Below are positions 973 to 12,697 of a stretch of DNA of 44,015 nt, one piece after another. Location of the stretch: contig JAUHXC010000011.1 in assembly GCA_030427205.1 (NCBI GenBank), positions 1 to 44,015 of the forward strand, given 5' to 3'. Position numbers and translations under genes: made by a program. The stretch comes from a bacterium (lineage in GTDB: Bacteria; Myxococcota_A; Bradymonadia; UBA7976; UBA1532). Within the stretch, counting starts at the first letter, position 1. Each line of letters opens with the position of its first letter. A model generated the notes under the pieces. It saw only the letters and a program-made list of their open reading frames with translations, was not told the DNA's origin and searched no databases.

Positions 973-2625
973 TCAGAGGTTGCGCCGCAGCACCGTCGGG
1001 CTCCAGATGTCTTTGCGGGTGGGCGTGAGCCAGGTCGCCGCGGGGAACGGTACGCCGGTGTGGTCGGCGACGTCCTTGGCGAACCTGGTGCAGTTGTACT
1101 CGAGCAGGCTGTAGTCCTTGGGGCTGCGGTACTGGTCGTAGGCGAACTTCAGGCCGGTCTTCCAGCGGTCGAAAGGCACCGGGACGCGCCGGCTGCGGGC
1201 CATGTCTTCGGTCGCGCTGTGGGTCTCGGGGTGCGAGACGCGGCCGGGCACCGCGTCGAAGGGGCTGTCTCCCGTGGCGCCGGGGTACAGGCCGAAGCTG
1301 CGCGCGTCGGCGGTCTGCCCGGTGCTCGTCTCGGTGTGGAAGCTGACCCAGGTGTGGCCCACGCCGGCCGCCATCAGCCCCGCGACGTAGTCCTCTTTGC
1401 GTTCCTTGCGGGCCCGCGGCGTATCGTCCGTGCCCGGCGGGGCCGGCTGCCAGTCCTCGGTGAACTCGTCGGCCACCTCTCGGGCCGCCTCGTCCTTGAT
1501 CTCGCCGCCCGTCTTACGGGTGAACCACTGCATCGCCTTCATGCGGGACCGCTTGATCGCGAAGGTGTCGTAGCGCTCATGCCCGGTGACGGCGTGGATG
1601 TTGAAGACATAGGTCATGTCGTCGGCGGCGTCTTCGGGCAGGGCGCGCACCGCGTCGCGCCAGGCATCGAACCGCGCGACCCGATCGGGCTTGCGCTGCA
1701 GCCGCCCGCGGTCCCAGTCGACGCTCTCGATCAGCGCGCGCGCCGCGGCGACCTTGCGCTGCTTGTCGCGGCCGCCGGCGCCCTCGTTGGCCGCAATGTA
1801 TTTGCGCGCCTGGGCCTCGATGGCGTTGTGCAGCACCTGCCGCCGGGTCGCCGCGTCGGCTGCGTCCCCGGCGATCGCGTGCCACTGTTCGACGAGGCCG
1901 AGCAGCGCTTTGTACTTGCCCCGCGACGACGGGGCGCCGCCGTAGGCCCGCATGTCGTCGACGGTGATCAGGCATTGCACCACCGGCGCGCTCGGCCGGC
2001 CCAACGTCGGCGGCCGGCCGGGCCGGCGCACCCCGGACTGCTGCACCGCGTGGGCGATCTCGTGGCGCAGCACCGCCTGCCCGCTGCGGGTCTCGACGGC
2101 GCAGCGGGCGGGGTCGAGCCAGATGGTCCGGCCGACGGTGGCCGCGGTGGCGCCGAGCCCGCGGGTGACCTCGGCGGCGCGGCGGTCGCTGTGCAGCCGG
2201 ATGCCGCTCAGGTCGACGCCGAAGCGGGGTTCGAGGCTGCGGCGCAGGTGCGCCGAGAGCGGGCGGCCACGCTCGAAGCCGCGGCGGATGGCGGCGCCGG
2301 TCTCGGCGTCGACGGGCGCGCCGCCACGGGGCCGCGGTCCGCGGGCCGGCGGCGGCGCGCGGCCGCCCGCGGGCTGAGGGCGGTCGGGCGCGGTGCGCTC
2401 GGCGGCGCGATGGGCCGCGTCTTCGAACCGATCGTCGGCCGGGCGTACGGTGAGGCCGGGGTCGGTGGCGGGGGTCGCGGCGGCCCGCATCCGCCGCAGC
2501 AGGGCGCCGACGCTGCGGTTGCCCATGCCGCGCCCGGCGTCATGCCCGGCGCCATGTTCGGCGTTGGCGCGCCGGGCGCCGGTCTCGCCCGGCCGCTTGG
2601 CGATGGCTCTGGTCGCGCGGGTCAT
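973..2625 (-). CDS. DUF4157 domain protein (zincin-like HExxH motif LRHEIAHAVQQ preceded by FGVDLSGIRLH...LGATAATVG) with a C-terminal region resembling a PPPDE/permuted-papain cysteine peptidase (H..SFG...P then YSLLEYNCTRF). No signal peptide or TM; effector or toxin-like.
   Basis: Full ORF with codon bias consistent with neighbours. DUF4157 signature block recognised (GxDLSxVRxH ... LGAxAxTxG ... HE[IL]AHVVQQ). Ordered His-before-Cys motifs at the C-terminus match the PPPDE/DeSI pattern. GGGGAG RBS 4 nt upstream of the ATG at 2625. Confidence 0.75.
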   Translation of the reverse strand: MTRATRAIAKRPGETGARRANAEHGAGHDAGRGMGNRSVGALLRRMRAAATPATDPGLTVRPADDRFEDAAHRAAERTAPDRPQPAGGRAPPPARGPRPRGGAPVDAETGAAIRRGFERGRPLSAHLRRSLEPRFGVDLSGIRLHSDRRAAEVTRGLGATAATVGRTIWLDPARCAVETRSGQAVLRHEIAHAVQQSGVRRPGRPPTLGRPSAPVVQCLITVDDMRAYGGAPSSRGKYKALLGLVEQWHAIAGDAADAATRRQVLHNAIEAQARKYIAANEGAGGRDKQRKVAAARALIESVDWDRGRLQRKPDRVARFDAWRDAVRALPEDAADDMTYVFNIHAVTGHERYDTFAIKRSRMKAMQWFTRKTGGEIKDEAAREVADEFTEDWQPAPPGTDDTPRARKERKEDYVAGLMAAGVGHTWVSFHTETSTGQTADARSFGLYPGATGDSPFDAVPGRVSHPETHSATEDMARSRRVPVPFDRWKTGLKFAYDQYRSPKDYSLLEYNCTRFAKDVADHTGVPFPAATWLTPTRKDIWSPTVLRRNL

Positions 2626-2705
2626 GGCTCTCCCCGAGGCGTCGGAACAGCGTAGACCAGCGCTACGCCGCTGAACAGGTGGCCCGCCAGGGCCGCCGGG
2701 GGCGT

Positions 2706-3980
2706 TCAGGGGGCGTCTTCGTCGTACGGCGCGGCCTCGGGCTGCGCCGGTATCGGATCGAGCGCGGGCGGGGCATCGGGGGTCGCGGGCGGGGCATCTT
2801 CGGGCGCGGTCGAGGGGTCGCCGGGCGCTGCGGGTGGCTCCGCGGGCGCCGCGGGCGGCGGTTCGGCCCGGTCGACGGCATTACGCAGCTGCTGCAGCGG
2901 GTCGACGGTGCGGGCGCGGAAGGCGGCGCGCAGCACCTCGGCGGACAAGCCGTCGGCCTGCTCGGCGTCGACGTGCGCCCCGTTGCCGGCGGCGGCGATG
3001 GCCCGATGCTGGGGGCGCACGAGGCGGTCGTGCTCGCGGGTGATGCCCCGGCGGCGGCCGTAGCCCGGCGGCGGGGTCGAGAGCATGTAGATCCGGCCGC
3101 CGGCGGCGGCGAAGCGGCGGGCGGTGTCGAGGCAGGGGCCCGCGCCGGGGTCGTCGGCGGCGGCGTCGCTGGTGGTGAGAATCAGCTTGATGGCGCCGGG
3201 TCGCCAGCGGGCCTTCTCCGCGGCGCCGAGGCCGCCGCAGAGCCACTCGGGGCGGTCGTCGTCGACGCCGGTGCTGGTGGCCTCGATGCCGGCGAGGAAG
3301 TCGGCGAGCTCGGCGGCGTCGGCGGTCAGCGGGTGCTGTTCGAGGCGCATGCCGGGGGCCTCGCGGCGGTCGCGGAAGACGATGGCGCCGACCCGGGCGG
3401 TGGGGCTGACGACGCGCAGGGTGTCGACGGTGGCCCGCAGGTTGCGCCGGGTGGCGTCGAGGCCGGCGGCCATGGACGCGGTGCCGTCGATGACGAGCAT
3501 GACGTCGACGGGGCGGGCGGTCAGCGGGTCGAGCTCGCCGAGCACGGCGCGCACGCTCTGGTCGAGTGCGGCGGCGCGTCCGCTGGCCTGCTGCGCCCGC
3601 TGCTCGCTGGTGGCCAGGGCGGCGGTGAGGGCCTCTTTGTCGGCGATGAGGCCGTCGCGCTCGGCGAGCAGGCGGTCGCGATCGGCCTGCAGGGCGGCGA
3701 GGGCCACGCTGGCTTCGCTGGCGGCGCCGCTGGCCCGGCGGGCGGCGGCCTCGGCGATCCGCTTGCGGTCGAGGGCGGCGATACGCGCCGATTCGGCTCG
3801 GGCCCGGGCCTCGGCCTCGGCCACCAGCGAGTCGCGGGCGTCGGTGAGCGAGGTGCGGATGTGCATCACCGCGACGAGGAAGAGCAGCAGCACGCAGCCG
3901 AGCGCGGTGGTCAGGATGTCGGCCAGCGAGGTGCCGAAGACCTCGGCGCCTCGGCGGCCGTCGCGGCGGCGGCGGCTCAT
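2706..3980 (-). CDS. MotB/ExbD/TolR-like single-TM protein (N-terminal Arg-rich cytoplasmic stretch, TM helix SLADILTTALGCVLLLFLV with the conserved Asp) followed by a periplasmic coiled coil, a von Willebrand factor A (vWA) domain (VMLVIDGTASM...) and a Pro/Ala-rich tail.
   Basis: The ORF track gives 2706..4670, but its first 230 aa are an Arg-rich out-of-frame read-through of the upstream gene. The true start is the ATG at 3980 (MSRRRRDG...), forming an ATGA overlap with the upstream stop at 3977-3979. The TM motif AD[IF][LM]T[TA]A resembles E. coli MotB YADFMTAMMAFF (recalled from memory) around the proton-conducting Asp32. The vWA block DGTASM plus downstream hydrophobic strands is typical. 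Confidence 0.7.
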   Translation of the reverse strand: MSRRRRDGRRGAEVFGTSLADILTTALGCVLLLFLVAVMHIRTSLTDARDSLVAEAEARARAESARIAALDRKRIAEAAARRASGAASEASVALAALQADRDRLLAERDGLIADKEALTAALATSEQRAQQASGRAAALDQSVRAVLGELDPLTARPVDVMLVIDGTASMAAGLDATRRNLRATVDTLRVVSPTARVGAIVFRDRREAPGMRLEQHPLTADAAELADFLAGIEATSTGVDDDRPEWLCGGLGAAEKARWRPGAIKLILTTSDAAADDPGAGPCLDTARRFAAAGGRIYMLSTPPPGYGRRRGITREHDRLVRPQHRAIAAAGNGAHVDAEQADGLSAEVLRAAFRARTVDPLQQLRNAVDRAEPPPAAPAEPPAAPGDPSTAPEDAPPATPDAPPALDPIPAQPEAAPYDEDAP

Positions 3981-5173
3981 CGCTCGGGCCCGAAGGGGCC
4001 GTCGTCGCTTTCGAGGTCGCCGTCGCCCATGGTGTAGGGGGTCGAGGTCTCGCCTTCGGGCAGGTCGAGCCGGGTCGAGGGGCCGACGGCGTAGCCCCGG
4101 GTCGGCTGGCGGGGGCGGGCCGGCGCGCCTTCGCGGCGCACGATGAGCGGCTGCTCGCCCTGGCGGCGCAGGGCGCCGAGCTCGTGCTGCAGCCGGGGCA
4201 GCGCGGCGCGGGTCTCGCGGGCGGCCTGCACCAGCTCGGTGACGGCGCCGTCGATGGGCGGCAGGGCTTCGAGGCGGCGGGCGACGGCGGCGAGCGCGGT
4301 GTCGATGGCCTGCATGCTGCGCTCGATGCGGGCGACGGTCTCGGCCTGGCGGTCGAGGGCGGCCTCGGCGGGGGTCTGCTGGGCGAGGCCGGCCAGGTCG
4401 AGGCGCTGCACGTAGCCGGCGCCCAGGTCGCGCTCGATGCGCTCGAGCAGGCGCTTGTCGCGGCCTTCGAGGCCCACTTCGAGCAGCTTGAGCGGCACGA
4501 CGAGCGCCAGGGCGAGCAGGGTGGTGTCGAAGGCGACCGCGAGCCCGGTCACCGCGGGGATGAGCGCGGCGAGGTCGTCGCCGACGCCGGTGATGACCCC
4601 GTCGAAGCTGGCGATGGCCCCGGCCATGCCGACGACGGTGCCCAGGAAGCCCGACAGCGGCAGCAGCCACATGGCGGCGGTGAGCGGGCGGTAGTCGTCC
4701 TCGACCCGGGCGTGGGCCCGGTCGACGGCCTGGGTGGCGGCTTCGAGCAGCTCGTCGCGGGTGGGGCGCTGGCTGCGGAAGTAGCTGAGGACGGCGTAGA
4801 GCACATCACCGGCGAGGGTGTCGCGCAGGCGGGTGAGCACCTCGAGGCGGCCGGGCAGCTCGCTGCGATCGACGGCGCCGTGCCGCAGCTCGCGGCAGGC
4901 GTCGAGGGCCCGGCGCTCGCCGGCGTGCACCACGAGGCGGCGCAGGATGTGGCCCACGCCCCAGAAGAAGAGGCCGACGGTCAGCGGCTGGCTGAAGCCG
5001 CGATCCCAAAGCAGCGTATGCAGCCGGGTCTCGGGGGCGAGCGCGTCGACGGCGAAGAAGAGCCCGGCGGTGCCGGCGACGGCGGCGAGCAGGGGGATGA
5101 AGCGGGTCCAGCCGCCGACGAGGGCGGCGGCGCCGCGGGAGGCGGTGAGTTGGCGGGGGTGGGCGATGTCCAT
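3977..5173 (-). CDS. MotA/TolQ/ExbB proton-channel family protein with 4 TM helices and a ~150-aa C-terminal cytoplasmic coiled-coil tail.
   Basis: Signature LLPLSGFLGTVVGMAGAIASF...AALIPAVTGLAVAFDTTLLALALVVPLKLL matches the MotA/ExbB TM3-TM4 channel motif. The ORF track start is 5233. The ATG at 5173 (MDIAHP) has a GGGAG RBS 6 nt upstream and is preferred. The stop overlaps the downstream start (ATGA). Confidence 0.75.
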   Translation of the reverse strand: MDIAHPRQLTASRGAAALVGGWTRFIPLLAAVAGTAGLFFAVDALAPETRLHTLLWDRGFSQPLTVGLFFWGVGHILRRLVVHAGERRALDACRELRHGAVDRSELPGRLEVLTRLRDTLAGDVLYAVLSYFRSQRPTRDELLEAATQAVDRAHARVEDDYRPLTAAMWLLPLSGFLGTVVGMAGAIASFDGVITGVGDDLAALIPAVTGLAVAFDTTLLALALVVPLKLLEVGLEGRDKRLLERIERDLGAGYVQRLDLAGLAQQTPAEAALDRQAETVARIERSMQAIDTALAAVARRLEALPPIDGAVTELVQAARETRAALPRLQHELGALRRQGEQPLIVRREGAPARPRQPTRGYAVGPSTRLDLPEGETSTPYTMGDGDLESDDGPFGPER

Positions 5174-5247
5174 GGGCGGCTCCCGCGGTGTGGGGTCGCC
5201 CATAGAATCAGCGGCGGGGGCCGATTTGTTCAACCGGCCCGCCGATT

Positions 5248-5425: not shown

Positions 5426-8400
5426 TTACATCGGCTCGCCGCAGAACGCGCCGAACTCGTCATCGACGCAGACGAAGTCGAAGTCGGCGCAGTTGTCGGT
5501 GAAGTTGACCCGGTACTCGCAGGTGGGCTGGCCGTCGTCGCCGACGACGCACTGCCCGTCGCCGCCGTAGAAGGCGACGGTGGTGGGGTCCTGGCAGAAG
5601 GCCGGCGGCGGGTCGAAGCAGAAGACGTCGGCGCAGGGGTCGCGCACGATGTCGAGGTCGATGGCCGCCTCGGCGGAGTAGCCGTTCTCGAGCCCGTCGC
5701 TGTCGCAATAGGCCCAGGTGCGCCCGCCGTCGACGCTGAAGCGGAAGGCCATGTCGTAGGCCCCGCTCACCGGCTGGCCGGGGTCGAACGAGGCGGTGTA
5801 CTCGTCGTAGGCGGGCGTGCCGCGGTCGTCGCCGTTGTAGCCGGGGGTGTCGATGGCCGGGGTCCAGCTCCAGTCGAGGTTGCCGGCGGGGTCCGATCCG
5901 CGCGGCCCGTAGCCGCCCTCGGCGACGAGCAGGCCGTCGAGGTCGACGAGCGGGGAGCGGTCGGTGATGCCGGCCTCGAAGACCAGGCCGGTGACTTCGA
6001 GCGGCGGGTTGAAGCCGCCGGCCTGCCACTCGGTGGGCACGACGGGGAAGTTGAAGCGGCAGTCGTCGACGGTGACGTCGACCTCGGGGCACTGCGGGTT
6101 GGGCAGGCCGGGGGTGCCGAGGTGGTCGAGCGCGGCGTCGCCGCCGGGGTCGGCGAAGTAGACCACCTCGCCGAGGCACCAGTTGATGCCCTCGTCGTTG
6201 GCGTCGAAGTCGTAGGCGTCGGGGTCGAGGCTGATCGAGGCCGCCGAGGCGTCGGGGAAGGTGAAGCCGTCGTCGTAGCCGAAGGTGTCGACGAGCGCCG
6301 CGCCGCAGTACAGGTTGAGCCGGCCGGCGGCGTTGGGCAGGGCGAAGTCGAAGGTCTGCGCGACCTGCAGCCCGCCGTTGACTTCGGGGTCGGCGGAGCG
6401 GGCGAGCAGCGCGACGCCGCCGGCGGCGAGGTTGATCGTCAGCCGGGTCGAGGCGCCGCCTTCGAGGCCCATGGTGCAGCCGTCGAGCACGAGGTCGCGG
6501 TCGGTGGTATTGGTCAGCTCGATCCACTCGGCCTGGTTCTCGGCGAGCACGCCCTGGGGGTCGTAGAGCATCTCGCTGAAGACCACGTCGCCCTCGCCGG
6601 CGATGGCGTCGGGCGATACGCAGCGCCCCGCGGCGCAGGCCTGTCCGATCGCGCCGCAGTCGACGAGGTCGAAGTCGTAATCACAGGTCGCGGCGTCGTC
6701 GACGATGTTGCACGTGCCGAGCGCGTGGTAGGCGGCGACGGTGGTGGCGTCGAGGCACTCGTCTTCGGGCACGTCGACGCACGGGTTGGGGTCGCAGGCC
6801 CCGAGGTTGTCGCCGCACGAGGGGTTGGGCTGCCCGGGGGTGCCGAAGTGCGGCGGGTCGCCGTCGAAGTAGGCCCCGGTGGCGTTGCACCACGCCTCGC
6901 CGAGGTCGTTGAGCTCGGCGTCGACGAAGTCGGGGTCGAGCTGGTAGGCCACCGCGGGGATGTTGCCCGGGAAGCCGGCGAGCGCGTAGTCGACCGCGTC
7001 GATGGTGGTCTGCCCGCAGCGCAGCTCGACGATGTCGCCGCCGTTGTTGAGGCTGAAGTTGAAGATGCCGTCGGGCGCGATGCCGCCGTTGGCCGCCGGG
7101 TTGAGCGAGCGGGCGAAGAGCAGGATCGCGTCGGCGGGCACGAGCAGGTCGCCCACCGCGAGCCCGTTGGCGCGGTCGCGCACCTCGCACCCGGCGAGGT
7201 CGAGCAGCTCGCCGCTGACGTTGATCAGCTCGAACCACTCGCCGGCCTGCTCGTCGATCTCACCTTCGGTATTGCGCTGGATCTCGTTGACGACGATGTC
7301 GCCCGGCTCGGGGGCCCGGGCGCCGGCGGCGTCGCAGAGGCCGTCGACGCAGCCGGCGGCCCCGCAGTCTTCGCGGATCTCTTCGGGCGGGATGCACACC
7401 GGCTCGCCGTCGACCGCTTCGCACGCGGTGACCCCGTAGCTGACGGCGACGTCGCCCTCGCAGAAGGCGGCGGGCGCGTCGGCGCAGGGGTTGGGGTCGC
7501 AGGGGTCGCCCGCCGGGCACTCGCGGTTGGGCAGCCGCGGGGTGCCGAGGTGCTCGGGGTCGAAGATGTAGGGGTCTTCGGCGAGGCACCAGTTGCGGCC
7601 GAGGTCGTTCTGCTGGGCGTCGAGCCGGTTGCTCGAGAGGTTGATCGAGGCCGCCCGCGCGTCGGGGAAGGCGCCGCCGTCGTCGTAGTTGACGGTGTCG
7701 ATCAGCGCGCCGTCGCAGCGCAGGTTGACCTCGTCGCCGCCGTTGGTCAGCGAGAAGTCGAAGGTGCCGTCGACCTCTTGCAGGCCGCCGTTGAGGATCG
7801 GGTCGTCGACCCGGGCGAAGAGCGCGTAGCCCCGCGCGGCGATCTCGACGCCGGCGATGGGGGTGCCGCTCGCCGAGTCGGCGATCTCGCAGCCGTCGAG
7901 GCTGAGCGGGGTGTCGGTGGTGTTGTACAGCTCGATCCACTCGGCGAAGTTCTCGTCGAGCCCGTTGTGCGGGTCGTAGAGGATCTCGCTGACGATGACC
8001 TCGCCCGGCGCGGGGAGCCGCGCCCCGCCGCAGGCGCCGTTGACGCACTGCGCGTCGACGCAGTCTTCGCGCTGCTCGGGGTAGTCGCAGGTGGCGAGGC
8101 CGATGGCGTCGACGCCGCAGACGCCCACGTCGGGGTAGGTCACGGCGGTGTTGCCGTCGCAGACGCTGACCGGCGGGTTCACGCAGGGGTTGGGCGCGCA
8201 GGGGTTGGCCGGCGGGTCGACCACCAGCCGCCCGGCGTCTTCGACCCGGTAGCCGTCCGACGAGCCGGCGTCGCCGCTGTCGCAGACCTGCCAGGTGCGG
8301 CCGCCGTCGACGCTGAAGCGGAAGGCGAGGTCGTACTCGCCGGGGATCGGCATGACCACGTCGGCGCGGTACTCGTCGTTATTGGGCTCGCCGAGCCCGC

Positions 8401-11400
8401 CGGCGCCGTCGTAGTCGGCGTTGGGGAAGCCGGGGGTCCAGACCCACTCGGGGTTGTCCATGGGCAGCGAGCCGTCGGGGCCGTAGCCCACCGCGGCCAG
8501 GATGAGCCCGGTGCCGTCGTTGAGCGGGCTGAGGTCGGTGATGCCCTCTTCGTAGATCCGGCCGTAGACGATCTGCACGGTCTCGAACTCGGCCTGCAGC
8601 TCGCTGGGGAACTGCAGCCGGCAGAAGTCGACCTCGCTGTCGCACGGCGGGTTGGGCGCGCCGGGCGAGCCCCACTGCGCCGGGTCGACCGAGTAGCGGG
8701 TGCGCGAGGGGCACCAGCTGGCCGGGTCGTCGTTGAGCGCGGGGTCGACGGCGCCGTCGCGCAGCTGGATCGAGAACCCGCGCACCGGCGGGAAGCCGCC
8801 GCGCTCGTCGTAGGTCACCGTGTCGACGATGATGCCGCCGCACGAGACGGTGAGGCTGTCGTCGGTATTGTTGAGGCCGAAGTCGAAGACGCCGCGCACG
8901 TTCTCCAGGCCGCCGTTGACCGCCGGGTCGGCGCTGCGGGCGAAGACGGCGTACTCGCCGACCTCGATCTCGACGTCGTCGGCCGGGCTCTCGTTGTTGG
9001 CGTCGGCGAAGACGCAGGTGCGCATCGACAGCGGCGCGTCGCTGGCGTTGTACAGCTCGAAGTACTCGGCGGTGTTGTCTTCGAGGCCGTCGTGCGGGTC
9101 GTAGAGGATCTCGGTGATGACCAGATCGCCGGGCAGCGGGTCGCGCACCTCGCCGCGCACGCAGGCCCCGTCGGCGCAGCCGAGCGGGCAGGCCGTGATC
9201 TCTTCGGCGTACTCGCAGACCGGCAGCCCGCCTTCGTCGGCGCAGGCGCCGACGGCGGCGTAGGCCACCTCGGTGTCGGCGTCGCGGCACTCGGACGGCG
9301 GCGGCTCGTCGCACGGGTTGGGCAGGCAGGGGTCGGCCGGGTCGCCGACGACGACGTGGCCGGCGTCGGCGGGCTGGTAGCCGTTGATCGAGCCCGGCTC
9401 GCGGTCGCAGAAGGCGTAGCTGCGGCCGTCGTCGGCGCTGAAGCGCCAGGCGACGTCGTAGCGGCCGGGCGGCAGGTCGGCGAGGGTCGCGCGGTAGGTG
9501 TCGGCGTTGGCGGCGTCGTTCTCCGGGTCGCCCTGGCCGACCATCCAGACCCAGGTGCGGTCCTGGGTGGGGTCGCTGCCCGCCGGGCCGTAGCCCACGC
9601 CGCCGCGCAGCCGCACGTCGGCGTCGACGCCGCGGCTGCGGTCGGTGATGCCGGCGGCGACGAGCAGCGCGGTGCTCTCGACGTCTTCGCCGAGCGCGAC
9701 GTTGGCCTCGTCGGGGCTGAGCAGGGTGCAGATCGTCAGCGTGGGGCAGCTCGGGTTGGGCCCGCCGGGCGTGCCGTGGTGGTCGCCGCCGGGCGCGTCG
9801 AAGTAGACCGGCAGGGTGCGGCACCAGTTGGCGCCGATGTCGTTGGTGAACGCGCCGGTCTGGTCGGGGTCGAGGGAGACGCTGTAGGCGGTCGCCGCGG
9901 GGAAGTTGCCGCCGACGTCGTAGGCCACCGCGTCGATCTCGACGCCATCGCAGGTCAGCGCGATGCGGTCGCCCTCGTTGCCCAGGCCGAAGTCGAAGGT
10001 GCCCTGGGCCTGCAGCCCGCCGTTGGCCGCCGGGTCGCCGTTGCGGGCGAGCAGCACGTAGCCGCCGGGCGCGACGTTGATCGCGCCGAGGGCCGAGGTA
10101 TTGCCGGCGTCGTCGCCGATGGTGCACCCGTCGAGGCCCACCTCGCGGTCGCTGGCGTTGTACAGCTCGATCCACTCGCCGTCGGCGTCGGCGAGGTCGC
10201 CGGTGGCGTCGTAGAGGAACTCGGTGATCACCGCCTCGCCCACCGCGGGCGGCGCGGCGGGCACGAAGCACTCGCCGTCGATGCAGCGGGCGCCGGGCGG
10301 GCATTCGAGCCGGTCTTCGGGCCAATTGCACTGCGCCTGACCGTCGACCGCCTCGCAGACGCCGGGGTCGCGGGGGCTGATGATGGTGACGCCGTCGTCG
10401 GCGCAGCGCGGCGCGGGCGGCGGCGGGCAGACGAAGCCGTCGCACAGGTCGCCGCCGACGGGGATGGCCTCGAGCTGGCCGGCGTTGCGCGGCTGGTAGC
10501 CGTCCTCCGATCCGGCGCCGAGGTCGCAGTAGGTCCAGGTCTCGCCGCGGTCGAGGCTGACCCGCCACGCGTAGTCGTAATCACCCGGCGCGGGCACGGT
10601 CAGCTCGGCGACGTACTCGTCGTTGTCGGGCTCGCCGCGGGCGGCGCCGTCCCACTCGGGGTTGCCGGCGCCGGCGACCCACTGCCAGTCGGCGTTGCCC
10701 GCCGGGTCGGAGCCGTCGGGGCCATGGCCCGCCTCGGCGATCAGCCCGGGGATGAAGTCGACCTCGGGCGTGTCATCGGTCCAGGTGGCTTCGTAGAGCA
10801 CGCCGAAGACCTCGAAGGTGGTGCCTTCTTCGGCGCGCACCGCCTCGGGGAACTGCAGCCGGCAGTAGTCGATGCTCGGCGGCGGGCAGGCGGGGTTGGC
10901 CGCGCCGGGCGTGCCGCGGTGGGCGCCGGCTTCGCCCGGCTCGCCGAAGTAGACGTCGCCGTCGGCGGCCGGGCACCAGCCGGGCCCGTCGTCGTTGGCG
11001 CCGGCGTCGCGCACCGACGGGTCGAGGCTCAGCGAGGCGCCCGAGACCGGCACGAAGCCGTTCTGGGTGTAGTCGACCTCGTCGACGTCGAGGCCGTTGC
11101 AGCGGATGCCGAACAGGTCGCCGTCGTTGCCGAGGCGGAATTCGAAGGTGGCGGCGACGTCGACGCCGCCGTTGACCTCGCGGTCGGCGCTGTGGCCGAG
11201 CACGATGCGCCCGCCGGCGGGGATGAGCCCGCCCGCGAGCACCTCGACGTTGCCGTCGTCGTAGACCTCGCAGCCGCCCAGATAGCGCGGGCCGTCGGCG
11301 AGGTTGAGCAGCTCGACCCACTCGGCGTCGCCGTCGGAGAGCGGGTCGACGGCGTCGTAGAGGATCTCGGTGATGATCACTTCGCCTTCGCCCGGGTTGG

Positions 11401-12559
11401 GGGCGAGGTCGACGCAGGCGCCCTGCTCGCAGCGGCCGCCGGCGGCGGCGCAGTCCTGGCGGCTCTCTTCGTCGTGGGTGCACTGCGCTTCGCCGTCGAC
11501 GGCTTCGCAGGCGCCGGCGGGGGCGTAGGTCACCGCGTCGTCGCCCTCACAGGCGGCCGGCGGCGCCTCGGCGCAGGGGTCGTCGTCGCAGGCGCCGGCC
11601 AGCGCGGTCAGGGTGCCGGTCTGCTCGTCCTGGAAGCCGTTCTCCGAGCCGTCGAGGTCGCAGCGCAGCCAGCTCGCCCCGCCGTCGAGGCTGAAGCGGT
11701 AGCTCAGCGCGTAGACCCCGGGGGCCGGCGCGTCGACGGTGGCGAGGTACTGGTCGAAGCCGGGGGCGCCGGCCTCTTCGGCGCTCCAGGCGGGGTCGGC
11801 CTCGGCGCGGGCCCACATGGGGGCGTCGGCGCCTTCGGCCATCCAGCCGGCTTCGGCGACGAGGTCGAGGTCGGCGTCGACGCCGTCGGTCAGGTCGGTC
11901 AGGCCGGCCTCGAAGACGCGGCCGGCGAGGGTCACCGGGCTGCCGGCGAAGACCTCGATCTCCGCCGGGCCGGCGAAGATGCAGGCGTCGGCGACGACGT
12001 CGGCCACGCAGCCGCCATCCTGGCAGGTCTGGCGGGCCGGGCAGGCCTGCGCGCTGCCCTCGTAGCGGCACTCGGCGCTGCCGTCGACCACCTCGCAGGT
12101 GCCGTCGTCGCCGAATGTGACCACCTCGCCGTTCTCATTGCACGCGGGGCCCGGCGGGCTGTCGCAGACCACGTCGGCGCAGAGGTCGACGTCGGCGACA
12201 CAGGTATTGTTGTCGAGGTCGCAGGTCTCGCCGTCGTCGCACTCGGCGTCGTCGGTGCAGCAGCCTTCGATCGGCTCGACGACGCACTCGCCCTCGACGC
12301 AGCGGCCCTCGCCGCAGACGGCGTCGACGGCGCATTGCACGTCTTCGGTGCAGGGCGGCGGCCCGACGTCGGGTTCGGGGCCGGGGTCCATGTCCGGCTC
12401 GGGTCCGGGGGTGACGTCGGGCTCGGGCTCCGGCGTACCGTCGGTCTCCATGTCGACGACCGGGCCGGTATCGGCCGCGGTCCCATCGCCGTCGTCGCAG
12501 CCGGCGGCGACCATCATCAATCCGATGGTCGCCAGGGCCACCCACGCTCTGCGCTGCAT
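5426..12559 (-). CDS. Giant (2377 aa) surface lipoprotein with ~6 tandem modules. Each module is a Cys-rich segment (CxxNPC...C...C), a lamin-tail domain (LTD; ITEILYDP.G.D..EWIELYN) and a conserved ~120-aa beta-rich domain (AGYGPDGSDP...DEY.A.L..P.PG.YD.AFRFS.DGG.TW..CD).
   Basis: Lipoprotein signal MQRRAWVALATIGLMMVAAGC (lipobox) starts at the ATG at 12559, with an AGGGGG RBS 5 nt upstream. The ORF track's upstream extension to 12646 is less likely. The LTD motif repeats about 6 times. The long plus-strand ORF 6122..12628 is an antisense artefact. Confidence 0.85.
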   Translation of the reverse strand: MQRRAWVALATIGLMMVAAGCDDGDGTAADTGPVVDMETDGTPEPEPDVTPGPEPDMDPGPEPDVGPPPCTEDVQCAVDAVCGEGRCVEGECVVEPIEGCCTDDAECDDGETCDLDNNTCVADVDLCADVVCDSPPGPACNENGEVVTFGDDGTCEVVDGSAECRYEGSAQACPARQTCQDGGCVADVVADACIFAGPAEIEVFAGSPVTLAGRVFEAGLTDLTDGVDADLDLVAEAGWMAEGADAPMWARAEADPAWSAEEAGAPGFDQYLATVDAPAPGVYALSYRFSLDGGASWLRCDLDGSENGFQDEQTGTLTALAGACDDDPCAEAPPAACEGDDAVTYAPAGACEAVDGEAQCTHDEESRQDCAAAGGRCEQGACVDLAPNPGEGEVIITEILYDAVDPLSDGDAEWVELLNLADGPRYLGGCEVYDDGNVEVLAGGLIPAGGRIVLGHSADREVNGGVDVAATFEFRLGNDGDLFGIRCNGLDVDEVDYTQNGFVPVSGASLSLDPSVRDAGANDDGPGWCPAADGDVYFGEPGEAGAHRGTPGAANPACPPPSIDYCRLQFPEAVRAEEGTTFEVFGVLYEATWTDDTPEVDFIPGLIAEAGHGPDGSDPAGNADWQWVAGAGNPEWDGAARGEPDNDEYVAELTVPAPGDYDYAWRVSLDRGETWTYCDLGAGSEDGYQPRNAGQLEAIPVGGDLCDGFVCPPPPAPRCADDGVTIISPRDPGVCEAVDGQAQCNWPEDRLECPPGARCIDGECFVPAAPPAVGEAVITEFLYDATGDLADADGEWIELYNASDREVGLDGCTIGDDAGNTSALGAINVAPGGYVLLARNGDPAANGGLQAQGTFDFGLGNEGDRIALTCDGVEIDAVAYDVGGNFPAATAYSVSLDPDQTGAFTNDIGANWCRTLPVYFDAPGGDHHGTPGGPNPSCPTLTICTLLSPDEANVALGEDVESTALLVAAGITDRSRGVDADVRLRGGVGYGPAGSDPTQDRTWVWMVGQGDPENDAANADTYRATLADLPPGRYDVAWRFSADDGRSYAFCDREPGSINGYQPADAGHVVVGDPADPCLPNPCDEPPPSECRDADTEVAYAAVGACADEGGLPVCEYAEEITACPLGCADGACVRGEVRDPLPGDLVITEILYDPHDGLEDNTAEYFELYNASDAPLSMRTCVFADANNESPADDVEIEVGEYAVFARSADPAVNGGLENVRGVFDFGLNNTDDSLTVSCGGIIVDTVTYDERGGFPPVRGFSIQLRDGAVDPALNDDPASWCPSRTRYSVDPAQWGSPGAPNPPCDSEVDFCRLQFPSELQAEFETVQIVYGRIYEEGITDLSPLNDGTGLILAAVGYGPDGSLPMDNPEWVWTPGFPNADYDGAGGLGEPNNDEYRADVVMPIPGEYDLAFRFSVDGGRTWQVCDSGDAGSSDGYRVEDAGRLVVDPPANPCAPNPCVNPPVSVCDGNTAVTYPDVGVCGVDAIGLATCDYPEQREDCVDAQCVNGACGGARLPAPGEVIVSEILYDPHNGLDENFAEWIELYNTTDTPLSLDGCEIADSASGTPIAGVEIAARGYALFARVDDPILNGGLQEVDGTFDFSLTNGGDEVNLRCDGALIDTVNYDDGGAFPDARAASINLSSNRLDAQQNDLGRNWCLAEDPYIFDPEHLGTPRLPNRECPAGDPCDPNPCADAPAAFCEGDVAVSYGVTACEAVDGEPVCIPPEEIREDCGAAGCVDGLCDAAGARAPEPGDIVVNEIQRNTEGEIDEQAGEWFELINVSGELLDLAGCEVRDRANGLAVGDLLVPADAILLFARSLNPAANGGIAPDGIFNFSLNNGGDIVELRCGQTTIDAVDYALAGFPGNIPAVAYQLDPDFVDAELNDLGEAWCNATGAYFDGDPPHFGTPGQPNPSCGDNLGACDPNPCVDVPEDECLDATTVAAYHALGTCNIVDDAATCDYDFDLVDCGAIGQACAAGRCVSPDAIAGEGDVVFSEMLYDPQGVLAENQAEWIELTNTTDRDLVLDGCTMGLEGGASTRLTINLAAGGVALLARSADPEVNGGLQVAQTFDFALPNAAGRLNLYCGAALVDTFGYDDGFTFPDASAASISLDPDAYDFDANDEGINWCLGEVVYFADPGGDAALDHLGTPGLPNPQCPEVDVTVDDCRFNFPVVPTEWQAGGFNPPLEVTGLVFEAGITDRSPLVDLDGLLVAEGGYGPRGSDPAGNLDWSWTPAIDTPGYNGDDRGTPAYDEYTASFDPGQPVSGAYDMAFRFSVDGGRTWAYCDSDGLENGYSAEAAIDLDIVRDPCADVFCFDPPPAFCQDPTTVAFYGGDGQCVVGDDGQPTCEYRVNFTDNCADFDFVCVDDEFGAFCGEPM

Positions 12560-12697
12560 CCGTCCCCCTCGTTCGCGTCTCGGTGGTTCGCGTCGTATTG
12601 GTCGATTCACGCGCGGATGATGTGGTGACGGCGCGATGCGAGTCAAACGACGGGTCGGTGACGGACGCGAGGGCGCGCGGCGCCGCGCCGAACGGGG

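Follow-up and report, generated by a model that had tools for sequence, protein, structure and literature searches.

The question raised by this locus is whether a gene for a protein with a DUF4157 domain belongs functionally with the genes beside which it lies. The window, that is, the whole stretch of DNA that was analysed (44,015 nucleotides; contig JAUHXC010000011.1 of the Myxococcota_A assembly GCA_030427205.1), carries on its minus strand a gene encoding a protein of 550 amino acids, just downstream of a pair of genes for a MotA-like proton-channel protein and a partner with a von Willebrand factor A (vWA) domain. A preliminary description of the sequence had read the product as a DUF4157 zincin-like domain fused to a putative PPPDE-type cysteine peptidase, and had suggested that it might be the effector or cargo of the neighbouring pair, by comparison with Zorya. 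We consider it probable (roughly 0.6) that the gene product is an orphan DUF4157-class cargo or effector of an extracellular contractile injection system (eCIS) or another contractile injection system (CIS). Such systems are phage-tail-like machines that take up toxins and inject them into other cells. This class was assigned because of the PF13699 match with its HExxH motif, the cargo-like layout of the protein, the presence of CIS genes in 7 of 17 homologue loci, and the recurrence of the MotA-vWA pair elsewhere without the gene. The effector-like character proposed at first was thus retained as membership of the eCIS/CIS effector class, whereas the partnership with the MotA-vWA pair was not; judging from the sequence, the gene appears to be an orphan copy at a synteny break, not functionally tied to the adjoining pair.

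Domain layout of the gene product

The gene and the parts of its product are located as follows.

973 to 2625, minus strand: DUF4157-led multidomain effector-like gene, complete open reading frame (ORF) of 550 amino acids, from the ORF list and its translation
2628 to 2635, minus strand: Shine-Dalgarno-like GGGGAGAG, 2 nt 5' of the ATG, read from the sequence
2323 to 2625, minus strand: Ala/Arg/Gly/Pro-rich, predicted disordered N-terminal region, residues 1-101, from the AlphaFold2 (AF2) model and composition
2026 to 2322, minus strand: DUF4157 / eCIS_core domain (PF13699), residues 102-200, from Pfam and the AF2 model
2050 to 2064, minus strand: HEIAH, putative zincin-type HExxH motif, residues 188-192, from the translation
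1645 to 1980, minus strand: membrane-localization domain (MLD/4HBM)-like four-helix bundle, residues 216-327
976 to 1614, minus strand: permuted NlpC/P60-papain-like Cys/His domain, residues 338-550 (conserved core about 401-549)
1354 to 1356, minus strand: codon of His424, in the GHTWV "H-box", predicted catalytic His, invariant in both alignments; codon verified
1090 to 1092, minus strand: codon of Cys512, in the YNCT "NC" motif, predicted nucleophile, invariant in both alignments; codon verified

The ORF runs from an ATG at 2623-2625 to a TGA stop at 973-975. Its GC content at third codon positions (GC3) was 0.90, which is coding-like (the sequence has 73% GC), and an identical protein of 550 amino acids is present in NCBI and Logan records. 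Horizontal transfer was considered from composition and dropped, the GC3 value being at the low end of, but inside, the range of the window (0.86-0.97). All the motifs quoted in the preliminary description were found in the translation (FGVDLSGIRLH...LRHEIAHAVQQ at residues 135-196, GHTWVSFHTE..SFGLYPG at 423-449, and YSLLEYNCTRFAKDV at 505-519). Neither a Sec signal nor a transmembrane (TM) helix was found in the protein by a Kyte-Doolittle scan, the maximum mean over 19 residues being 0.76, and the reported lack of a signal peptide was thereby confirmed. No NCBIfam model matched the product.

The DUF4157 assignment was borne out by Pfam. PF13699 (DUF4157, renamed eCIS_core) matched residues 122-198 at an E-value of 8.8e-22, with a score of 77.5 bits (cut-off 22), spanning profile positions 1-77 of 79, and the HEIAH motif was intact; here the family has the consensus LLAHELTHxxQQ. 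The AF2 model of the full-length protein had a predicted local distance difference test score (pLDDT) of 82, with high values over residues 102-550. The DUF4157 fold was confidently modelled (residues about 102-200, pLDDT about 90-96), and pLDDT fell below 50 at residues 2-54 and 88-100, in the low-complexity N-terminal region (residues 1-101; A 21%, R 19%, G 14%, and P 11%). The predicted order was a disordered N-terminus, DUF4157, a helical bundle at 222-327, a strand and helices at 338-419, and a catalytic core at 424-549. As modelled, this layout is of the eCIS cargo type, with a disordered N-terminus, DUF4157 and a folded C-terminal part. DUF4157 is described as a core marker of eCIS, usually placed N-terminal to variable toxin domains (bioRxiv 10.64898/2026.05.27.728243, PMC8213781, PMC11297309). 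In Cgo1 and Cgo2, cargo proteins of AlgoCIS, a disordered loading sequence at the N-terminus is followed by DUF4157 and then by a variable domain at the C-terminus, and their loading requires the N-terminal region, DUF4157 being dispensable for it (bioRxiv 10.64898/2026.05.27.728243). By analogy with Cgo1 and Cgo2, residues 1-101 would occupy the position of the loading sequence and may play the same role.

The C-terminal domain was defined by scanning 1.84 billion cluster representatives exhaustively with HMMER, at E-values up to 1e-3. A domain of about 130-150 residues, equivalent to residues 401-549, was shared by 114 proteins (clusters at 50% identity); word-indexed searches, run first with the C-terminal 336 amino acids and then with an alignment of the domain, gave no more than the protein itself or two matches. 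Two alignments (A1 and A2) were built, and conservation was read from 46 domain sequences and 80 full-length proteins. G423, H424, G445, G461, and C512 were invariant in both sets; Y505 and P543 were invariant too among the 80 full-length proteins, and W426, S443, P448, P466, D467, N511, and F515 were at least 90% conserved among them. The family motifs are vGHtWV, SFGFwP, vPGxVxhPD, and YxLxxYNCTxFA. Since H424 and C512 were invariant among the 46 and the 80 homologues, the pattern of a His followed by a Cys is not due to chance. S443 and D467, each conserved in at least 90% of the full-length proteins, are candidates for a third polar catalytic residue.

The fold similarity and the His placed ahead of the Cys assign the domain to the permuted NlpC/P60 (H-box/NC) superfamily, which includes TseH, YiiX, LRAT/PLAAT, Lnb, and RID. 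A narrower placement among PPPDE proteins fitted the conserved His-then-Cys dyad in a permuted papain fold and failed on profile scores. PF05903 (PPPDE) gave 12.1 bits around the Cys with the whole protein (E 0.18) and 15.5 bits with the domain alone, for a cut-off of 29.2; it matched 18 of the 46 members weakly (best E 1.8e-4, below the curated cut-off). Lnb_N (formerly DUF4105), the lipoprotein N-acyltransferase domain, matched 19 of the 46 weakly, also below its curated cut-off, and Pfam TseH touched a single member of the 46. When the family profile was compared with the PDB, the PPPDE structures 3ebq (E 3.7e-4) and 2wp7 (5e-4) came first, followed by TseH (0.07) and Tse1-type amidases (about 0.5), with the NC motif of the family aligned to NCNTF of DeSI and NCMTF of TseH. 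A phmmer search of the PDB with the single sequence gave no match, and Foldseek against the PDB gave noise, with E-values above 0.2. The closest solved structure to the domain is TseH, a type VI secretion system (T6SS) effector, and not DeSI.

The superfamily to which the domain belongs spans amidases, isopeptidases, acyltransferases, and depalmitoylases. Because of this diversity, and because Lnb_N was matched as often as PPPDE, a cysteine peptidase is one possible chemistry among several, and the sequence alone does not fix which. Hence, the initial proposal of a PPPDE-type cysteine peptidase held at the superfamily level, as a permuted-papain domain with His before Cys, but neither membership in PPPDE (12-15.5 vs. 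29.2 bits) nor peptidase activity could be upheld.

A middle domain had been overlooked in the earlier domain reading. An iterated hidden Markov model identified a region homologous to residues 216-302 in 28 of the 114 representatives; it invariably precedes the catalytic domain by about 180-225 residues. Pfam MLD (PF11647) did not match the target protein itself; it matched nine of the 80 relatives (best E 2.3e-6), scoring 14-19 bits against a cut-off of 35, below gathering, in the five relatives with listed scores, and the matches fell inside the region homologous to residues 216-302 in the five relatives with mapped coordinates. A PDB search with the profile of this region returned almost only MLD-bearing toxins, at the residues of their MLDs: TcdB (E 3.6e-4), the isolated MARTX MLD (3.9e-4), and TcdA (1.7e-3), and more weakly RRSP (0.017), RID (0.031), and the MLD of PMT (0.084). 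Each of these lines is marginal by itself, and jointly they make homology with the MLDs of TcdA/B, PMT, and MARTX toxins the best reading of this predicted bundle. The pairing of an MLD with a papain-like domain having His before Cys is also found in RID (PMC6315884).

Genomic context of the homologues and alternative readings

The family comprises about 114 clusters, with members in sequences that include Myxococcota-like, Chloroflexota, and cyanobacterial ones. DUF4157 stood N-terminal to the Cys/His domain in 64 of the 114 representatives and was detected by Pfam in 55 of the 80 relatives. In a scan of the genome collection the first alignment proved too diverse, and a narrower one gave six loci, the source genome not being among these. 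The sample used for genomic context consisted of 17 homologue loci.

Despite short contigs, CIS genes adjoined the homologue in seven of these loci. In a metagenome-assembled genome of Anaerolineae (L003) the homologue lies within a complete eCIS operon, between an AAA+/WHD ATPase and genes for Pvc16_N, sheath, tube, tube, and VgrG, and in three other loci (L004, L019, and L020) it adjoins Pvc16, sheath or tube genes. In JGI metagenome 3300021179 (L017, 1-22826) eight consecutive DUF4157 genes follow directly after an eCIS AAA+/WHD ATPase, three of which carry the permuted NlpC/P60-like domain. The homologue adjoins a fragment of an eCIS ATPase in L025 and a weaker AAA+ match in L021, the latter being counted among the seven although it may be a generic AAA protein. 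Arrays of DUF4157 genes make up two further loci, L006 and L007. In the arrays of L017 and L018, small ORFs without annotation lie between the DUF4157 genes. The contig of L006 (1-10954; Pseudanabaena sp. "Roaring Creek"), of 11 kb, has DUF4157 in four of its five large co-directional ORFs; it resembles a polymorphic effector array and contains no structural gene of an injection system.

Several observations weigh against assigning the present gene to the eCIS/CIS effectors. No homologue of sheath, tube, baseplate, AAA+/WHD ATPase or Pvc16 and no second DUF4157 gene was found in positions 2626-44015 of the window (41 kb, on one side of the gene), and on the other side the window holds only a repeat array of 0.96 kb; this differs from most eCIS-associated toxins (EATs), 88% of which have an eCIS operon no more than ten genes away (PMC11297309). 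In two loci (L016 and L022) the homologue is likewise an orphan, surrounded by housekeeping genes. Nor is DUF4157 confined to CIS contexts; in mycobacteria, for instance, it is found beside ripC (PMC12067865). Finally, the gene lies on the same strand as the MotA-vWA pair, at a distance of 80 bp, and neither a promoter nor a terminator could be recognised in between, so that co-transcription with the pair is possible.

The alternative that survives best is that of a cell-envelope hydrolase independent of any CIS: either an antibacterial amidase or endopeptidase like TseH or Tse1, reaching its targets via lysis, outer-membrane vesicles or myxobacterial predation, or a housekeeping wall-remodelling enzyme with DUF4157 as its regulator, as proposed near mycobacterial ripC. 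This is an unlikely explanation. The protein lacks both a signal peptide and a TM segment by which it could reach the periplasm, its MLD-type membrane-targeting bundle is typical of toxins that act inside cells, and its relatives occur repeatedly within eCIS operons and effector arrays. Moreover, there is no conserved adjacent immunity-like ORF: the small ORFs flanking five of the homologues were unrelated to one another and absent from the window.

Less probable still is that the Cys/His domain and DUF4157 together form a processing or release module, that the real toxin is the C-terminal tail of the relatives, and that the target is a tail-less and possibly inactive derivative. Tails of more than 100 residues follow the Cys/His domain in 71 of the 114 representatives and group into several clusters unrelated to one another, the largest of 17 members, which is the pattern of a constant module with polymorphic tips. 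However, no Pfam annotation and no recognisable toxin domain was found in the tails, and 26 of the 114, with all the invariant residues intact, end at the Cys/His domain. The latter include the subclade of the target (P0002, P0003, P0005, P0007, and P0016).

Candidate mode of action and comparison with known systems

For an eCIS/CIS effector, the domains would suggest a sequence of four steps. The disordered and basic N-terminus, of about 100 residues, would serve as a loading signal for the AAA+ ATPase of the CIS, as suggested by AlgoCIS Cgo1 and Cgo2. The DUF4157 zincin-like module with its HEIAH motif would have an accessory function, which might be processing, refolding or keeping the toxin inactive. 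After delivery, the MLD-like bundle would bring the protein to an anionic membrane surface, if it binds lipids as the MLDs of TcdB, PMT, and MARTX toxins do. There, Cys512 and His424 of the permuted NlpC/P60 domain would form a thioester acyl-enzyme, and the outcome could be either hydrolysis of an amide or isopeptide bond, as in TseH and DeSI, or, on a membrane-proximal substrate, transfer or removal of a fatty acyl group, as in RID, Lnb, and PLAAT.

In its most specific form, the proposal would be that DUF4157, MLD, and permuted NlpC/P60 domains define a previously undescribed family of injection-system effectors that docks through its MLD to the membrane of the target cell, as RID does, and uses its Cys-His pair for fatty acylation or deacylation of membrane-proximal proteins. 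This must be regarded as speculative, and we hold it to be doubtful. If it were true, lipid-modifying chemistry of the RID type would enter the eCIS repertoire of environmental and predatory bacteria.

The closest likeness is with eCIS cargo and EATs (AlgoCIS Cgo1/Cgo2 and EAT14), which share the order of domains, the HExxH motif and the lack of a Sec signal; homologues of the target also lie in eCIS operons and in DUF4157 arrays. The target differs in its C-terminal module, an MLD-like bundle plus a permuted NlpC/P60 domain, which is not among the described EAT toxin domains. Its loading into particles would follow by analogy with eCIS cargo.

TseH of Vibrio cholerae (PDB 6v98), an NlpC/P60-family cysteine hydrolase, shares 15-17% identity with the target; it has neither DUF4157 nor MLD, is delivered by the T6SS and has an adjacent immunity gene, and its third catalytic residue, Glu81, has no verified equivalent in the target. 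RID, the Rho-inactivation domain of MARTX toxins (PDB 5xn7), is an internal effector in a giant toxin that processes itself, and not a DUF4157 protein; its catalytic part has no sequence similarity to the target detectable by HMMER, and its N-epsilon-fatty-acyltransferase activity cannot be assumed for the target. The PPPDE/DeSI proteins (PF05903, MEROPS C97, PDB 3ebq and 2wp7), for which the target remains below the gathering threshold, are single-domain eukaryotic or viral deSUMOylases or deubiquitinases.

The class to which the gene is assigned is already known, and the domain assignment together with the RID-like architecture is the moderately interesting part. Among the predicted DUF4157 effectors, 983 of 1130 lack an annotated toxin domain (PMC11297309). 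Here a "dark" C-terminal region of such an effector was placed in a defined family with an invariant His/Cys pair and a fold like that of TseH, PPPDE, and RID. Cargo of the eCIS type would also possess an MLD-type bundle, descriptions of which have so far come from large clostridial, Pasteurella, and MARTX toxins. Engineered injection systems might, in addition, use the protein as a payload scaffold.

The MotA-vWA pair and the repeat array

The neighbouring features are given below.

2706 to 3980, minus strand: vWA protein of 424 amino acids: Asp-bearing, MotB/ExbD-like TM segment (SLADILTT), coiled coil, vWA domain and Pro-rich tail
3977 to 5233 (NCBI start ATG at 5173), minus strand: MotA/ExbB-family proton-channel protein, PF01618 with E 8.9e-8
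2665 to 2716, minus strand: GC-rich hairpin across the vWA stop codon, without a U tract, from RNA folding of 2615-2725 (z-score -1.6)
11 to 960, no strand assigned: non-coding tandem array of an 85-bp unit in at least 10 copies, from Tandem Repeats Finder (TRF; period 85, 10.3 copies, 91% matches, no indels)

The pair of MotA-like and vWA genes is real, as had been described. Besides the PF01618 match, the stop of the MotA-like gene overlaps the start of the vWA gene as ATGA, and the partner has a TM segment, a coiled coil, and a vWA domain; Pfam matches to VWA and VWA_2 were weak in the 424-amino-acid protein, and its orthologues carry PF00092. We found 75 MotA-like homologues, and those with a source name were from Myxococcota/Myxococcales. 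The co-directional placement of the DUF4157 gene was also confirmed, the gap being exactly 80 bp (2626-2705), in which a consensus scan detected no promoter or terminator. The hairpin at the vWA stop codon was not statistically unusual.

The MotA gene and its vWA partner, with a 4-bp overlap, are kept on long contigs of three other Myxococcota assemblies, and the gene after the pair differs in each of them (CCP_MauG, a fructosamine kinase, and unannotated ORFs). In the closest relative, GCA_030426085.1, MotA and vWA have protein identities of about 80% and 82%, respectively. Collinearity of this assembly with the window extends over a giant gene of lamin-tail domain (LTD) repeats, MotA, and vWA (window positions 12664 to about 2850), and the similarity stops in the Pro-rich tail of vWA. 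Since synteny stops there, the DUF4157 gene and the repeat array are lineage-specific at that position. The Pro/Ala-rich tail of vWA (2709-2850, minus strand) contains a 21-bp tandem repeat at 2758-2828, where similarity to the nearest orthologue is lost.

A search with PADLOC, Zorya included, at E-values up to 0.1 found no family for the MotA-like, vWA or DUF4157 proteins. The pair is a conserved two-gene unit of Myxococcota and, by PADLOC, is not Zorya. Its likeness to Zorya ZorAB and to the 5:2 stators of MotAB/ExbBD type lies in the neighbours only (a MotA_ExbB protein and an overlapping partner with an Asp in a single TM segment), and the partner ends in vWA instead of a peptidoglycan-binding domain. 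That the protein is the effector or cargo of this genuinely stator-like pair, in a Zorya-like module of three genes, is tempting from the shared strand and the short gap, but it is very improbable, because the pair recurs in three assemblies followed by other genes, synteny with the nearest relative ends short of the DUF4157 gene, MotA or vWA genes adjoin the homologue in none of the 17 loci (vs. 7 of 17 with CIS genes), no PADLOC model covers any of the three proteins, and the gene has its own Shine-Dalgarno site, a hairpin crossing the vWA stop codon. The preliminary description had itself named homologues that never occur beside MotA-like genes as grounds for refuting the link, and this is what the sampled loci show. 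A stator link is therefore unsupported, and there is no evidence for a new stator-coupled effector module.

Immediately upstream of the pair, a protein of about 2400 residues made of repeated Cys-rich modules is encoded at 5426-12646 (minus strand). Its orthologue in locus L009 is annotated with lamin-tail domains (PF00932), and the gene is syntenic in the closest relative, with 78% nucleotide identity.

Directly adjoining the DUF4157 gene's stop codon, the 85-bp array lies where synteny with the nearest relative breaks, and it runs to the edge of the window, probably past position 1. Repeat and pattern searches agreed with TRF, and Rfam gave no match to the array. ORFs inside it were rejected as coding, the period not being divisible by 3 and a GC3 signal being absent. 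Outside the array, copies were found neither elsewhere in the window nor in the fetched loci, apart from the end of L001, a Logan contig of 2.3 kb that breaks in the array. Each 85-bp unit consists of two similar half-units around GGTCCCGTCG(A/G)CGGCG.

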